A stretch of 8,848 bases of DNA from a virus. Its lineage: Monodnaviria; Loebvirae; Hofneiviricota; Faserviricetes; Tubulavirales; Inoviridae. The translations under genes were made by a program, and so were the position numbers. The notes below the pieces were generated by a model. It was given only the letters and a program-made list of their open reading frames with translations. It was not told the DNA's origin and made no database searches. How positions within the stretch are numbered: the first letter of the stretch is position 1; each line of letters starts with the position of its first letter. Below are positions 103-8,848 of the stretch, piece after piece. The stretch lies in the IMG/VR virus record IMGVR_UViG_2579779034_000001; one strand, 5' to 3'.

Positions 103-1206
103 TTATTTTTTGTCTAATATAGCACTGCTTATATTAGAATTCTTAGCTGTAAAAAGCATATCTGCTTCTTGGTATATTTCACCTGAGCCACCACTAAAGT
201 TAAACTCGATGTTTAGGTCATTATAAGTAATGCTTGGAGAGTATTTTCTGCTTATTATAATATAGCCAACTGAATTTGCAGGAACCTCAACCCTTTCTTT
301 CGGTTTTTCCATAAGATATCCATTATCATTAACAAATTCAACATTGTATTTTTTATACACTCTTATTTCTTCATCATCTCTTTTCTTTTCATCTTTATAA
401 TCAAATGTATCAACATGTTCGGAAATATATTGAAAGTTTTTATATATTCTCCATCCGCCTGAAACCTTCAGTACTTCTGATGTTTTGTTAATTATTCTAA
501 ATTTGAACATTATTTGATTTTTTTCTATCTTGGCATCTATTATTTCAATAGGGTATTCATTCGCTCTTAGATTGTAATTTTCAGTTATCAGTCCATTACC
601 TATAGGATTAATCGAAAGCCCAGAATTGTACATATTGTTATAAATCATGTAGTTATATGCTTTCAAGGGGCCCGCGAGAGGGTTGTCTTCTGTTTGGATA
701 CTGATGACCATATAACTGAAAAATGCAGCAAAAATAGCACCACCTAAGATAAAAGAACCTGCACTCGGTGGCACTGAGTCTTTTGAAAGGTATGTTTTCC
801 CGTCAGTATCTTCTGATCTTATGGAAGGCATGGTACTTTTATCAAGAATTCTTGTTCCTTCAATCAAGAGCACCATGGATATTTTTTTATTTGCTAATAT
901 TCTATCTATCTTTACAAAAGAACCTTCGGTAGTTGCATCATGATCACTTGCAATTACAGTACAAGACATACCGTTTGGGACTTTTATTTCTACATTTTTT
1001 TCTTTATCCTTACCTTTATTAAATACTGATGCATTTATTACTATTGCATTGTCAGATATTGAGGTTTTACTTAAGGAGTTCCAGCAGGATAAGTAAAGTT
1101 GTCTTTTCCTAAATATAGATAAAAACTTATTGAGGACTAATGCCACAAAAAAAGAAGTAACTACTTTCAATGTATCAGTAATCAAGTCCGGCATCTTTTT
1201 TCTCAT
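103..1206 (-). CDS. Hypothetical membrane protein, 367 aa, two predicted TM helices; AT-rich phage cargo gene of unknown function
   Basis: A 367-codon ORF in DNA of roughly 32% GC (a sampled 60-nt stretch gave 19 G+C), where stop codons are frequent by chance. Hydrophobic segments at about residues 12-32 and 148-170. No catalytic motif recognised. Weak Shine-Dalgarno. Confidence 0.75.
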   Translation of the reverse strand: MRKKMPDLITDTLKVVTSFFVALVLNKFLSIFRKRQLYLSCWNSLSKTSISDNAIVINASVFNKGKDKEKNVEIKVPNGMSCTVIASDHDATTEGSFVKIDRILANKKISMVLLIEGTRILDKSTMPSIRSEDTDGKTYLSKDSVPPSAGSFILGGAIFAAFFSYMVISIQTEDNPLAGPLKAYNYMIYNNMYNSGLSINPIGNGLITENYNLRANEYPIEIIDAKIEKNQIMFKFRIINKTSEVLKVSGGWRIYKNFQYISEHVDTFDYKDEKKRDDEEIRVYKKYNVEFVNDNGYLMEKPKERVEVPANSVGYIIISRKYSPSITYNDLNIEFNFSGGSGEIYQEADMLFTAKNSNISSAILDKK

Positions 1207-1273
1207 TTTACTTAAAATCCAGTGTTTTAACTGATCAAAGATGGTCAGATAAAATGCAAAAATTTAGTATTTG

Positions 1274-1304
1274 AATATTACCCTAGTTAACCTAGGGTAA
1301 TATT
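1274..1304. promoter_or_regulatory. Perfect 13-bp inverted repeat with 5-bp spacer (operator-like palindrome) upstream of the 367-aa cargo gene
   Basis: Arm 1274-1286 AATATTACCCTAG and arm 1292-1304 CTAGGGTAATATT are exact reverse complements; spacer TTAAC. No adjacent T tract on either strand, so an operator is more likely than a terminator. Confidence 0.5.
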
Positions 1305-1310
1305 ATATCA
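1302..1310 (-). promoter_or_regulatory. Candidate extended -10 promoter element (TGATATAAT) for the 103..1206 gene
   Basis: Minus-strand sequence TGATATAAT at plus 1302-1310 fits TGnTATAAT. Its TGA is the stop codon of the upstream 139-aa gene. The palindrome 1274-1304 covers the predicted +1 region. Confidence 0.35.
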
Positions 1311-1727
1311 ATAATATGAATTTCTTCGGTGCCACCAATAAAGTAGACCGTATCCGACGATAAGAATCCCAAAAAATATCAGAGACATTCCCCAGCCAGT
1401 TCCGTACCACGAAACCATATCATCGAAAACCAACCCACCCGTTTCACGTACTCCGGCAGCTTCCTTAAGAATTGGTTTGAATACCGGAATCAGAAGGGCG
1501 ATCGCCAGTGGGGCACCCCAGCGAACAAGACCTGTTTCCATTTTGATCCCGAAAAAGATCCCCGCACCGACAACAAGCAACCAGACTATCAGGCCAGGCG
1601 CAGTTTCCAGTGCTGTTTGCCATTCAACATCGAAAGTTTTCATTAGCCAGGCAACAACTGCCAGACAGAAAGCAAATACGCCCACGACAACCAGTTCAAC
1701 GCCGCTTGTTTCGTTATTTCTACTCAT
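1308..1727 (-). CDS. Hypothetical small integral membrane protein, 139 aa, about four TM helices
   Basis: ORF with four hydrophobic stretches. Good RBS on the minus strand (AAGGA about 8 nt before the ATG). GC about 52% in a sampled stretch, clearly higher than neighbours. The antisense ORF 1477..1767 is shorter and judged spurious. Confidence 0.65.
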   Translation of the reverse strand: MSRNNETSGVELVVVGVFAFCLAVVAWLMKTFDVEWQTALETAPGLIVWLLVVGAGIFFGIKMETGLVRWGAPLAIALLIPVFKPILKEAAGVRETGGLVFDDMVSWYGTGWGMSLIFFGILIVGYGLLYWWHRRNSYY

Positions 1728-4041: not shown

Positions 4042-5358
4042 ATGAAAAGGAAAATATTAATTCTTTCCGCTGTCCTCATTTCTCCTTTTTCACATGCTGA
4101 GTCATGGGAAAGCATTACTAAATCCACTTATCAAAGTTCTGCCTACGCTGAAAGTAAGCAAATAACCAATCAGGATGGCTCTAAGACAACGGTTTACTAT
4201 ATTGATGCTGCTATGCAGGCCTCCGCTTGTCAGGGTGCTAAATCCAGTGCTCAGAGTGTATTTACTCGGGTTAAACCAACTTATGAGGGTATCTGGCCTG
4301 ATTCTGAATTCCGTCTTGTTTTTACTGGTGATTGTACTTACAGCGATTCACCAGGGCAGAAGGATAAATATTGGTCTTTAACGGCTTATATTGTTGGTAA
4401 TATTCAGCGTTCTGTTCCTGATGAAAAACCTACTGACCCGACACCAGAAGAAATTTGTGAAGCGAAGCCGCCAGAAGAAGGTGTATTTAATAATGTTGAT
4501 TCATATGATGGTGGTCGCTATATCTACTATAACGGCTGTGAATATGAGGCTACTGGTGTCATTGTTTGTCAGGGTGATGGTACTGTTTGCGCTGCAACAT
4601 GGAAGCCTACAGGTGCTGTAGCTGACCCCTCTGATAAACCCTCAACCCCCCAAAATGGCGGTGGTGAGTCCGGTGGTGGTGAGTCCGGTGGTGGTGAGTC
4701 CGGTGGTGGTGAGTCCGGTGGTGGTGAGTCCGGTGGTGGTGAGTCTGGCGGTGGTGAGTCTGGCGGCGGTAGTTCTGGCGGTAGTTCTGGCGGTAGTTCT
4801 GGCGGTAGTTCTGGCGGTGGCTCTAGTGGTTCCAGTCTTTCTAAAGGTGATATTCAGTCTGCGATCGAAGGTGCTTCACCCAAAATAGCCAGCGATATTC
4901 ATGATAAATTAACGGAGAAAGACACTTCATCAGATGATAAAAAAAATGCCGATGAACAAACCAGGAATAATATAAATCGTCTTGACGATTCCATTAACAA
5001 TCTTACGCGGGGGGCTGGCCGTTTTGCTGACCCTTCAGGTGGTGATTCTCGTTATGGAAAGGGCGACTCTGAATTAGATGGCGCTTCTACTTTAGCTGAT
5101 TCTGAATTGGGAATTGAAAAGGATTCTCACGGTGCTTTATGGGAAGCATTTTTAAATAAAGGTGCTATGCTGCCTAATTTGCCCAATGGTAACGGCTGCT
5201 CTGATTTTATTATTTTCCCCGGAGAGGTTTATCAGATTGATATTGGTTGCGATAAATTACTGACTATTAAAGATGTTCTTTCATGGGTTTTTTATTGCCT
5301 TACTTTCTGGTATGTCTTTACTTCTTTAACTTCATTGCTTCGCAAAGGGGGTGAGTGA
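4042..5358 (+). CDS. gIII: Minor coat / adsorption protein pIII (438 aa)
   Basis: Signal peptide [19 protein letters not shown]. Cys-rich segment [26 protein letters not shown] resembles M13 N1 (YEGCLWNATGVVVCTGDETQCYGTW). Gly/Ser-rich linker. C-terminus IDIGCDKL...[17 protein letters not shown] resembles M13 (IDCDKINLFRGV...FMYVFSTFANILRNKES). First ATG after the gVIII terminator. Confidence 0.9.
4657..4836 (+). repeat. In-frame tandem repeats encoding the pIII Gly-rich linker (seven 15-bp GGGES units, then 12- and 15-bp GGSS/GGGSS units)
   Basis: Seven 15-bp units GG(C/T)GGTGGTGAGTC(C/T) from 4657 to 4761, then GGCGGCGGTAGTTCT, three GGCGGTAGTTCT units (4777-4812), and a degenerate tail to 4836. 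Confidence 0.9.
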
Positions 5359-6801: not shown

Positions 6802-8067
6802 ATGCGCTCTGTTATTGTTGCTTTTTTATTTGCCTGTTCATTCTGCGTTTCTGCTGAAACTGTTAATTTAAATAATTCATCTGTTCGCTCATTTGTTCAG
6901 TGGTATTCTTCAAAAACTGGCAAGCCTGTTATTGTTAATCCTGATATTAAAGGAAACGTAACCGTATTTAATGCTGATGTTAATCCAACAAATATTGATG
7001 ATTTCTTTAAGTCTGTTCTGAATGCTAACGGTTTTGTCATGCTTTCTGGCAATCCTGCGGTAGTCTCTTTGCCGTCTAAATTACCTTCACAGATGGTTTC
7101 GGATTCCGATGATTCTGATAACCAGTCTTATGATACTTTTCCTTCTGAGCCATCTTACCAGCCAGTACCTGTAGCGCTTACGGTCAGAAATTTTAAGCTG
7201 ACAAAAGTTAGATCGTCCGATGTTCAGCAACTGATTAAAATTTATCTTGATTCTAATGGTGGTGGTAATGTCGTGGATTATCCAGGCAATAACTCGCTGA
7301 TTGTTTCTGCGCCTGACGAGCTGCTGCCGGTTCTGTCCGATTTTATCAATTCTGTGGATGTTGCCCGCGATCAGGTTCTCATTCAGTCGCTGATGTTTGA
7401 AACCAGCTTGTCTGATGGCGTTGATTTATCGTTTGCGGCAGGTTCTGCATCCGGTCATAAGGTTGCGGGGGGCTTTAATACTTCTGCACTGGGTAGCGCT
7501 CTTTCTACGGCGGGCGGTTCTTTTGGTATTTTTGATGGTAACGTGTTGGCGCTGTCTCTGCGTGCTGTCCAGAGTAATTCACGCTCTAAGGTGATTTCAA
7601 CGCCGCGTATTCTTACTCAGTCTGGTCAGACTGGTTACATTTCCGTAGGTAAGAATGTGCCGTTTATCACCGGAAAGGTAACGGGCGAATCTGCCGGGGT
7701 AAATAATCCGTTTCAGACTATCGAGCGTCATGATGTTGGTGTTTCTCTCAAGGTAACGCCTGTTGTCATGGGTAACGGGCAACTAGTTCTGACTATCGAC
7801 ACTCGTGCTGATTCAATCAGCAATGATGATCAGGCATCCGATATTATTACTAATCAGCGCCAGATTCAGACGACAGTCCAGATTAAGGATGGTCAGACGT
7901 TGTTATTGGGGGGGCTTATCGATTCATCGTTCAGCAATGCCGAGCGTTCAGTTCCAGTTATAAGTAAAATTCCTCTTATAGGCTGGATTTTCAGTAGCAA
8001 GGCAGACAGCAATGAACAGCGTATTATGTATATTTTGCTTACAGCACATATCATTCGTCCACTTTGA
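6802..8067 (+). CDS. gIV: Secretin pIV (outer-membrane export channel), 421 aa
   Basis: Signal peptide MRSVIVAFLFACSFCVSA. Strong secretin-domain similarity to M13 pIV (for example SVGKNVPFITGKVTGESAGVNNPFQTIER vs SVGQNVPFITGRVTGESANVNNPFQTIER, DGQTLLLGGL, SKIPLIG). RBS AGGAG. The upstream ATG at 6709 would overlap gI and lacks a signal peptide. Confidence 0.95.
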   Translation: MRSVIVAFLFACSFCVSAETVNLNNSSVRSFVQWYSSKTGKPVIVNPDIKGNVTVFNADVNPTNIDDFFKSVLNANGFVMLSGNPAVVSLPSKLPSQMVSDSDDSDNQSYDTFPSEPSYQPVPVALTVRNFKLTKVRSSDVQQLIKIYLDSNGGGNVVDYPGNNSLIVSAPDELLPVLSDFINSVDVARDQVLIQSLMFETSLSDGVDLSFAAGSASGHKVAGGFNTSALGSALSTAGGSFGIFDGNVLALSLRAVQSNSRSKVISTPRILTQSGQTGYISVGKNVPFITGKVTGESAGVNNPFQTIERHDVGVSLKVTPVVMGNGQLVLTIDTRADSISNDDQASDIITNQRQIQTTVQIKDGQTLLLGGLIDSSFSNAERSVPVISKIPLIGWIFSSKADSNEQRIMYILLTAHIIRPL

Positions 8068-8110
8068 TGGATAGCGGGTAGGTGCGTGAGCCCTGCTCGC
8101 TATCCATCAA
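8064..8110 (+). other. Large hairpin immediately after gIV; candidate packaging signal and/or terminator
   Basis: Perfect 13-bp inverted repeat 8064-8076 TTGATGGATAGCG with 8098-8110 CGCTATCCATCAA, 21-nt loop, overlapping the gIV stop. The Ff packaging signal hairpin lies at this position. No T tract follows. Confidence 0.45.
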
Positions 8111-8136
8111 ATGGACATTATTGATTGGGGTAACTA

Positions 8137-8445
8137 ATGGATTCTTATGGGATTTTATCTGCTCTGGCAGAACGAACGATTACAGCGGAAGAAGCAAAAA
8201 CAATGACACTTGCAGCCAGAAGTTCTTCGGCTCAGGTAAATGAAGCATCACTTGCTCTGTTACTGATTGATAATACTCTGGATGCGATCAAAGCAGCTGC
8301 CAGTGAAGGGAAAGGATACACTTTACTTCCTTCTTATGAGATTTCTGTAAAAGCCATTGATTTAGCAGAAGAATTTTTAAGGAAACAATGCGGCTATGTT
8401 ATTGATAACCAGAATGGCGTAAGGACGGTCTATTGGTTTATATGA
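8137..8445 (+). CDS. Hypothetical protein, 102 aa (accessory)
   Basis: ORF with an Ala/Leu-rich, probably helical N-terminal part; RBS-like GGGGT upstream; no recognisable motif. Confidence 0.55.
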   Translation: MDSYGILSALAERTITAEEAKTMTLAARSSSAQVNEASLALLLIDNTLDAIKAAASEGKGYTLLPSYEISVKAIDLAEEFLRKQCGYVIDNQNGVRTVYWFI

Positions 8446-8562
8446 TAACCCCGGACAATGACAAAACTTGCTTTTGTTAGTGTCAGGGGTTGGCCAAGCC
8501 GAACAATTCTGTTTTTTTAGCGTTATTGCTGATTCGGCGCGGCAGCATTACGAGGAGATAAA

Positions 8563-8796
8563 ATGCAATTTTTCACATCCAGCGATACTGTAATGTTATG
8601 TGCGAAGACCTGCGATCGCTGTGGTCGCCATGCGAAGACGGTGGTAGATGACATTGAGTTCAATGAGTTTCTGTCTGTTAATCACTTAGCTGGATACGGT
8701 TCAATTTTTGGTGACAGTAATCGCTTAAAACTGGATTTATGCCAACATTGCCTGAAAGACGTCCTGGGCCAGTGGATTACGGTCTGTGACCAATGA
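8563..8796 (+). CDS. Hypothetical Cys-rich putative zinc-ribbon protein, 77 aa (accessory)
   Basis: Strong RBS GAGGAG 5 nt upstream of the ATG. Cys pairs CDRC (residues 17-20) and CQHC (60-63) plus C13 and C75, compatible with a Cys4 zinc-binding fold. Function unknown. Confidence 0.62.
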   Translation: MQFFTSSDTVMLCAKTCDRCGRHAKTVVDDIEFNEFLSVNHLAGYGSIFGDSNRLKLDLCQHCLKDVLGQWITVCDQ

Positions 8797-8831
8797 CGGC
8801 ACCGGTAACGCCAGTTCCCGCCATCCTTACC

Positions 8832-8848
8832 ATTGGTGCGCATAATGT
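8832..8848 (+). other. Start of the right-junction dif site (XerC arm), truncated by the window end
   Basis: ATTGGTGCGCATAATGT is identical to 1-17. GGTGCGCATAA-TGT is the beginning of the canonical dif core. Confidence 0.7.

Follow-up and report, generated by a model that had tools for sequence, protein, structure and literature searches.

Two unrelated small genes, one from a large family of putative zinc-binding proteins, beside the attachment site of a CUS-1/YpfPhi-type filamentous prophage

The filamentous phages CUS-1 of Escherichia coli K1 and YpfPhi of Yersinia pestis, for which 99% identity has been reported, integrate at dif, form tandem repeats and carry an inverted pair of XerC/XerD-like sites in their single strand (PMC4266046). 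A 2014 review describes YPO2280a and YPO2281 of YpfPhi, and their CUS-1 homologs, as genes that adjoin attR, have no predictable function and occupy the place that ctxAB takes in CTXphi (PMC4266046). According to the review, particles are no longer made when genes for replication, morphogenesis or secretion are mutated, and these two open reading frames (ORFs) are treated as additional (PMC4266046). A link between these phages and fitness has been drawn for invasive E. coli K1 and for pandemic Y. pestis, with the ORFs at the end of the genome named as an open question (PMC4266046). Here we analyzed an 8,848-nucleotide (nt) Inoviridae sequence from IMG/VR (IMGVR_UViG_2579779034_000001; hereafter "the window") that carries two small ORFs at this location, ORF102 and ORF77. 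The existence of both, without predictable function, is already published (PMC4266046). We report that the two genes are independent of each other, that ORF77 belongs to a large family with a conserved cysteine pattern and characteristic fusion partners, and that a structured element lies between them. On balance, we lean toward the reading that a dif-integrating CUS-1/YpfPhi-type prophage acquired ORF102 and ORF77 separately, as cargo (moron) genes, and that ORF77 is a zinc-held protein-binding module.

The window spans a single unit of a filamentous prophage of the CUS-1/YpfPhi type, tandemly integrated at E. coli dif. It aligns over its full length, at 99.8% identity, with the chromosome of E. 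coli strain AZ184, in which the copies stand in tandem directly after hipBA, in the dif neighborhood. The best E. coli match over the whole unit is 15 nt longer than the window. The XerC-side half of a dif-type junction, ATTGGTGCGCATAATGT, occupies the last 17 nt of the window (8832–8848, + strand) and is identical at positions 1–17, so the phage unit is 8831 nt long. The junctions read GGTGCGCATAATGT, and a perfect dif (GGTGCGCATAATGTATATTATGTTAAAT) is restored after the last prophage copy in other strains (loci L002, L016 and L017). Tandem integration at dif with dif regenerated at the right end places the element in the dif-integrating group. Based on sequence and self-complementarity, the phage attachment region (1–101, + strand) contains two inverted dif-like sites around a GC-rich hairpin, a layout like the CTX-type folded single-strand attachment site (attP) proposed for YpfPhi (PMC4266046). 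The same region is also found on plasmids L003 and L055. Because dif integration, tandem repeats and inverted Xer-like sites agree with the description of CUS-1 and YpfPhi (PMC4266046), we assign the window to this type.

Pfam and RefSeq annotation of the window identified a gpII-type replication protein (Pfam Phage_CRI and G2P_X_C, E = 9e-70), a gpV-like single-stranded DNA-binding protein, G7P and small virion proteins, a major coat protein, G3P, a DUF5455 protein, a Zot-like ATPase and a secretin. With this full set of replication, coat, Zot-like assembly ATPase and secretin genes, the element belongs to the filamentous phages. A 7938-bp circular Salmonella record represents the same phage as an episome, and its ORF102 and ORF77 are identical to those of the window. 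Neither ORF had a match at the DNA or protein level in the INPHARED phage collection, and the prophage group is apparently missing from GenBank phage records.

ORF102 (8137–8445, + strand, 102 amino acids [aa], WP_000378924.1) and ORF77 (8563–8796, + strand, 77 aa, WP_001159442.1) are both called by RefSeq/PGAP as hypothetical proteins, in agreement with the original prediction, which was made from the sequence alone. ORF102 matches PHROG 4115 (E = 2e-68) and ORF77 matches PHROG 5435 (E = 4.5e-46), both of which are PHROGs of unknown function. The strong ribosome-binding site that had been proposed for the second ORF is GAGGAG (8552–8557, + strand), 5 nt 5′ of the ATG. A purine-rich Shine–Dalgarno-like stretch (GAGGAG, GAGGGG or GAGGGA) is kept 5′ of the ORF77 homologs in L003, L011 and L017 and is weaker in L010. 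Comparison with diverged homologs gave ratios of nonsynonymous to synonymous substitution rates (dN/dS) of 0.14–0.24 for ORF102 and 0.05–0.22 for ORF77, with dS saturated or nearly so. Given ratios of 0.05–0.24, we conclude that both are protein-coding genes under purifying selection and not chance ORFs.

The two genes follow a near-perfect 49-nt hairpin (8063–8111, + strand) that overlaps the stop codon of the secretin (gene IV-like) gene. Its predicted DNA fold has an energy of -20 kcal/mol (z = -6.7), none of 200 shuffled sequences was equally stable, and it is 94% identical in the Salmonella relatives L007, L009 and L013. By analogy with Ff phages, in which the packaging signal lies at the matching position, this hairpin is assumed to be the packaging signal. 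The proposal that accessory protein-coding genes lie between the post-secretin hairpin and the attachment site is supported, as is the statement that neither protein belongs to a named family: scans against Pfam, NCBIfam, PADLOC and PHROGs yielded no functional assignment for either. The sub-threshold matches were weak (zf-FPG_IleRS at 17 bits and S-layer at 15 bits), and the PDB sequence search with the ORFs returned nothing below E = 0.07.

The presence and absence of the two genes across related prophages, a check that had been suggested with the original prediction, vary independently, and ORF102 and ORF77 are unrelated genes that do not form a pair or cassette. Profile comparison of the two revealed no similarity. 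Homologs of ORF77 occur without ORF102 directly after the secretin gene in another inovirus lineage (77–82% identity; L010, L011 and L017), on a plasmid-like contig (71% identity; L003), on Klebsiella plasmids including the IncF plasmid L055 (62–64% identity) and on small Morganellaceae plasmids of replicon type rep_cluster_1791 (49–55% identity). On the Morganellaceae plasmids the homolog stands alone, with no long ORF in the ~280 nt upstream or in the 1.77 kb up to rep downstream, and with differing neighbors. Homologs of ORF102 (~60% identity) occur without ORF77 after the secretin gene of Salmonella prophages (L007–L009 and L013). A dif prophage of E. coli UTI89 from a different filamentous lineage (L053, 8686–9328) has the order secretin gene, small ORF, two-hairpin element, small ORF and dif, and its ORFs of 82 aa (basic) and 65 aa are unrelated to ORF102 and ORF77. 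As the contents differ across elements, we infer two cargo slots that are filled variously, with ORF102 in slot A and ORF77 in slot B of the window. Their variable presence among related phages, together with occurrence in unrelated mobile elements, points to the genes as phage cargo.

Some homologs of the two genes stand in unusual contexts. The Klebsiella pneumoniae IncF plasmid NZ_CP132652.1 carries a ~2.9-kb element without phage structural genes (L055, 4416–7317). It comprises, in order, the phage attP region, two helix-turn-helix (HTH) genes, a hypothetical gene, and the two-hairpin element with an ORF77 homolog in a 102-aa form, and it ends in the dif-like site AGTGCGCATAA-N6-TTATGTTAAAT. 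Its make-up suggests a small integrative element that depends on Xer, and perhaps a satellite; the arrangement at L003 (2851–4195) is similar. In P0014 (70 member sequences), the gpII N-terminus is fused in frame to the final 21 residues of ORF77, and in P0019 (from Citrobacter) to residues 35–102 of ORF102. Both fusions, which connect sequence equivalent to the window from 2126 onward with parts of 8137–8796, are deletion remnants from which nearly the whole phage has been lost. Many "G2P" proteins in the ORF102 90% cluster were considered as further gpII–ORF102 fusions and rejected: they are plain gpII fragments that were joined by chained clustering, and P0019 and P0014 are the only true fusions.

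ORF77 encodes an acidic protein of 8.7 kDa (isoelectric point [pI] 5.4) that, by sequence comparison, represents the stand-alone form of an unnamed domain that is widespread and occurs on mobile DNA. A word-indexed search recovered only 14 relatives. In a profile search of 1.84 billion cluster representatives, 1236 clusters passed E ≤ 1e-3, of which 613 also passed E ≤ 1e-10, and neither Pfam nor NCBIfam has a model for this family. The cysteine pattern described in the original prediction held in part. Cysteines are present at positions 13, 17, 20, 60, 63 and 75, but C13 and C75 are unconserved across the family. The alignment of 109 members shows no variation at C20, D51, C60 and C63, 96% conservation at C17, and >90% conservation at each of D18, E32, E35, G44, S47, G50, D58 and Q61. 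C17, C20, C60 and C63 are all invariant in 40 long members of the family. ORF77 is therefore a Cys4 domain protein, with four conserved cysteines of the metal-ligand type in two CxxC pairs.

An AlphaFold2 model of ORF77 built on the 109-sequence alignment has a mean predicted local distance difference test score (pLDDT) of 93 and a predicted template modeling score (pTM) of 0.73; an earlier run on a 6-sequence alignment was poor (pLDDT 57). In the model, strands 14–16 and 23–25 flank C17 and C20 and form a knuckle, which is followed by a long beta-hairpin (37–42/54–59) whose loop holds a GYGSxFGDG motif, and a helix (61–71) begins at C60/C63. The zinc site is predicted to be treble-clef-like, with the first CxxC in the knuckle and the second at the helix N-terminus. 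The earlier suggestion of a small zinc-ribbon-like protein agrees with this to the extent that conservation and model point to ORF77 as a Cys4 zinc-binding protein. Members of the family share an acidic ORF77-type domain (median pI 4.8, net charge ~-4), which argues for protein binding rather than DNA binding, and ORF77 is probably a zinc-stabilized, stand-alone protein-binding module.

The architectures of ORF77 relatives were surveyed in the best 146 representatives, of which 55 are ≤90 aa and 42 are >130 aa long; the ORF77-type domain is N-terminal in 135. Relatives in 69 viral loci are nearly always 74–105 aa. Among 40 long relatives, eight have a C-terminal PF09722 domain (the toxin-binding domain of Xre/MbcA/ParS antitoxins), one has TacA1 and two have DUF4926. 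In addition, one relative has an HTH_17 match. A FDPxxHGGEFP motif follows the zinc domain in 11 of the best 146 representatives (P0029, P0031, P0033, P0062, P0168 and others). The gene with the ORF77 domain in L030 comes directly after a canonical Xre-HTH+PF09722 antitoxin gene. Other relatives are preceded by TniQ or an integrase, and those in tailed-phage contigs adjoin terminase, portal, HNH or methylase genes. A search for a toxin beside the PF09722 fusion proteins found none. The domain thus recurs on plasmids, transposons and phages and in antitoxin-like proteins, and a dif-like site is nearby in only two (enterobacterial) of the 37 genome loci of the family.

ORF102 is an acidic protein of 11 kDa (pI 4.7) in which inspection by eye revealed no apparent signal peptide or membrane segment. 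It had no match in Pfam, NCBIfam, PADLOC defense-system or PDB sequence searches. The profile search with ORF102 recovered ~10 clusters among 5.8 billion proteins, all from Enterobacteriaceae, and all 10 of its IMG/VR loci are on contigs of 7–14 kb, the size of inoviruses. Residues 36–102 are near-invariant and the N-terminus varies. From these sequence comparisons, ORF102 appears to be a lineage-restricted gene of a few enterobacterial filamentous prophages, under purifying selection.

The 117-nt spacer between ORF102 and ORF77 holds a conserved two-hairpin non-coding element (8447–8543, + strand), with helix 1 at 8447–8491 and helix 2 formed by 8493–8501 paired with 8535–8543. About 105 nt of the spacer (8444–8549, with conservation to ~8552) are repeated at 78–86% identity in eight further contexts; these include other dif prophages and plasmids, and some have ORF77 whereas others lack it. 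Only a part of the element (~70–105 nt) was detected in 118 E. coli records. In an alignment of nine copies, the element has 25 pairs, 99.1% of cells are paired and five pairs show compensatory changes. None of 500 shuffles matched the observed values, and slid controls dropped to 34–56% paired. The DNA fold has a z of -3.8. A G-T pair is found at columns 32/50 in all nine copies and at columns 31/51 in five of the nine, which favors folding of the + strand (viral or mRNA-sense). A scan of the window against Rfam gave no match. We regard the element as a candidate cis-acting site of this group of single-strand DNA elements, which could be a minus-strand origin, a packaging signal or a leader for the next cargo gene.

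If the two genes are separately acquired cargo, the stretch from the secretin gene to the attachment site would hold two insertion slots, separated by the conserved two-hairpin cis element, at the position where CTXphi carries ctxAB (PMC4266046), and both genes would be dispensable for replication and assembly. ORF77 would be translated from its own strong ribosome-binding site. According to the model, C17, C20, C60 and C63 would hold one zinc, which would link the N-terminal knuckle with the beginning of the C-terminal helix, and D18, E32, E35, S47, D51, D58 and Q61 may form, with the GYGSxFGDG loop, a surface for a conserved partner protein. The conserved polar surface, the acidic charge and the repeated antitoxin-type fusions suggest that ORF77 binds such a partner, perhaps as a regulator or neutralizer. 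It would work on its own and in trans, and would aid the element or the host as a small module that regulates or neutralizes. Several observations weigh against this reading. A scan of 7900–8848 for sigma-70-like promoters and intrinsic terminators found none. No annotated homolog or experiment supplies a function for ORF102 or ORF77. Across the 37 genome loci and 69 viral loci, no gene family recurs beside the ORF77 relatives, where HTH, PF09722, TniQ, integrase, terminase and HNH genes are scattered, and classical toxin families are absent among 68 neighbors. The equivalence with YPO2280a and YPO2281 is based on the description in the review (PMC4266046). An acidic charge is compatible with nucleic-acid binding. 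Finally, ORF77, its upstream element and the attP region move jointly in several elements, and the role of ORF77 could be tied to integration or to the single-strand DNA lifestyle.

Two alternatives for ORF77 we consider improbable to different degrees. In Xre-type antitoxins, the N-terminal position is usually held by a DNA-binding HTH domain, and the ORF77-type domain takes this position before PF09722 or TacA1 antitoxin domains. Together with the one relative that has an HTH_17 match and the conserved 116-nt element that accompanies the gene, this could indicate that ORF77 is a zinc-finger DNA-binding regulator, similar to the N-terminal module of an antitoxin or to a phage activator, which acts on phage or host transcription, perhaps via its own upstream element. 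Such a role is unlikely, given that the domain is acidic family-wide, that it matches no DNA-binding zinc-finger family in Pfam or NCBIfam, and that the upstream element is also present without ORF77. An accessory function in the integration or excision of dif elements, in which ORF77 would act on XerCD or on the folded attP, is very unlikely. ORF77 ends 38 nt before the XerC-type arm, it occurs together with its upstream element and attP in two inovirus lineages and in the ~2.9-kb dif-flanked Klebsiella plasmid element, and some distant relatives adjoin integrase or TniQ. On the other hand, a nearby dif-like site is rare among the genome loci of the family, as noted above, homologs on Morganellaceae plasmids and tailed-phage contigs lie away from Xer sites, and UTI89-type and Salmonella dif prophages are integrated at dif without ORF77. 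The proposed function would loosely resemble that of XafT, the Xer activation factor of TLCphi. XafT is a DUF3653 protein, and neither ORF102 nor ORF77 has a Pfam match to DUF3653 or an HTH domain; ORF77 has no Pfam match of any kind. The idea is kept alive only because ORF77 is physically linked to attP in enterobacterial elements.

Two further alternatives involve both genes, and we rate them as equally improbable, slightly more so than the Xer-related role. The original prediction of an addiction-like cassette, in which ORF102 and ORF77 would be a toxin–antitoxin pair that stabilizes the prophage or episome, was prompted by two small same-strand genes adjoining an att site. The phage group does carry genes of this type, as a Doc-family toxin is encoded elsewhere on the sister episome, and the antitoxin-type C-terminal fusions in longer ORF77 relatives lend a link to toxin–antitoxin proteins some indirect support. 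The pair itself fails, because the genes do not co-occur as a unit: each is found without the other. Moreover, they are separated by the structured 117-nt spacer instead of overlapping in an operon, ORF102 matches no toxin or defense family, and the sizes of the two families are very different (~10 clusters for ORF102 versus 1236 for ORF77). One or both proteins could instead have a core phage function specific to this group, as an origin-binding, packaging or morphogenesis accessory. Presumed cis elements surround the ORFs (attP, the post-secretin hairpin and the two-hairpin element), ORF102 is confined to inovirus contigs, and ORF77 relatives in tailed-phage contigs are sometimes beside large terminase, portal and HNH genes. 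This explanation fails because the genes are absent from sister phages: close dif prophages lack one or both of them and keep the cis elements. In addition, ORF77 homologs occur on non-phage plasmids, and the review treats the two ORFs as additional to the genes needed for particles (PMC4266046).

Other parts of the prophage also vary. The left arm (103–1727, minus strand) encodes proteins of 367 aa and 139 aa downstream of a 60-aa ORF (1816–1998), and its genes constitute a third, highly variable cargo slot. The 367-aa and 139-aa proteins had no match in Pfam, NCBIfam or PADLOC. In the Salmonella episome this slot holds the Doc-family toxin, and in other sister prophages it is occupied by a PD-(D/E)XK nuclease, an STM4504/CBY_0614 protein or a "mobilome CxxCx(11)CxxC protein". 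The attachment protein G3P includes a glycine-rich GGGES/GGS repeat tract (~4600–4800 of the window). In E. coli strain 1434 (NZ_CP184019.1), the prophage copy is disrupted by an ISEcp1-family insertion sequence. The Salmonella relative in L007 ends at a perfect dif (10731–10758), and from 10951, ~200 nt past dif, it is followed by a tailed-prophage lysis module (DUF2514, lysozyme and holin); L011 has the same neighbor.

Cargo genes of unknown function beside att sites are common, and there is nothing surprising in kind about those described here. The question of the right-end ORFs is narrowed to unrelated passengers, one of which belongs to a large unnamed zinc-domain family that provides a concrete handle for experiments. 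Taken together, the observations allow a broader reading that we offer tentatively and give a low but appreciable chance of being correct: the ORF77 domain may be a new, widespread zinc module of mobile elements that binds and neutralizes, or senses, a conserved cellular or defense protein, and that travels in enterobacteria as a portable block. If so, stand-alone ORF77 would be an anti-toxin or anti-defense factor suited to very small genomes, and the fused domain would be the input module of antitoxin-like proteins. The portable block would consist of the two-hairpin element, ORF77 and the folded attP, and would build phage-less mini-elements at plasmid Xer sites, possibly satellites of filamentous phages.

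Among known zinc proteins, the fit of ORF77 to the class of treble-clef zinc fingers (for example, PARP-1 fingers, the ClpX zinc-binding domain, RING domains and ribosomal eS26) is limited to the arrangement of the ligands and the predicted topology, and the comparisons revealed no solved structure close to it. The original prediction had named two specific models, MqsA/YgiT-type zinc domains and Ogr-like activators, and neither was borne out. MqsA is an antitoxin whose N-terminus is formed by a small Cys4 zinc module, and some antitoxin-like proteins similarly begin with an ORF77-type domain. However, the cysteine spacing differs (CxxC-x39-CxxC in ORF77 versus CxxC-x30-CxxC in the MqsA sequence), and ORF77 has neither an HTH domain nor an adjoining MqsR-type toxin. 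There was no Pfam or NCBIfam match to this type and no structural match, and hhalign comparison of the family profile with MqsA gave a probability of 0.3%. At most, ORF77 would resemble in its action the zinc module with which antitoxins such as MqsA begin. For Ogr/Delta zinc-finger activators, there was no such Pfam match at E ≤ 1, and the spacing is CxxC-x39-CxxC. The likeness to Xre/MbcA/ParS antitoxins is that the ORF77-type domain replaces the HTH before PF09722 in the eight fusions among the 40 long relatives. In contrast to these antitoxins, ORF77 itself lacks PF09722, and the members examined had no neighbor from a classical toxin family such as RES or ParT.

The closest likeness is to YPO2280a and YPO2281 of YpfPhi and their homologs in CUS-1 of E. 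coli O18:K1:H7, which are also two small ORFs after the secretin gene, beside attR, in a tandem dif prophage. By position and phage identity, ORF102 and ORF77 are likely to be the counterparts of these genes. Literature searches on YPO2281, on CUS-1 and on a zinc domain joined to DUF2384 returned nothing past the 2014 review (PMC4266046). Unlike ctxAB, ORF102 and ORF77 have no similarity to cholera toxin or a known virulence factor, and a secretion signal is not apparent by eye. As in ctxAB-type moron cargo, they are accessory genes located between the assembly and secretion module and the attachment site (PMC4266046), and their presence is variable among related phages.

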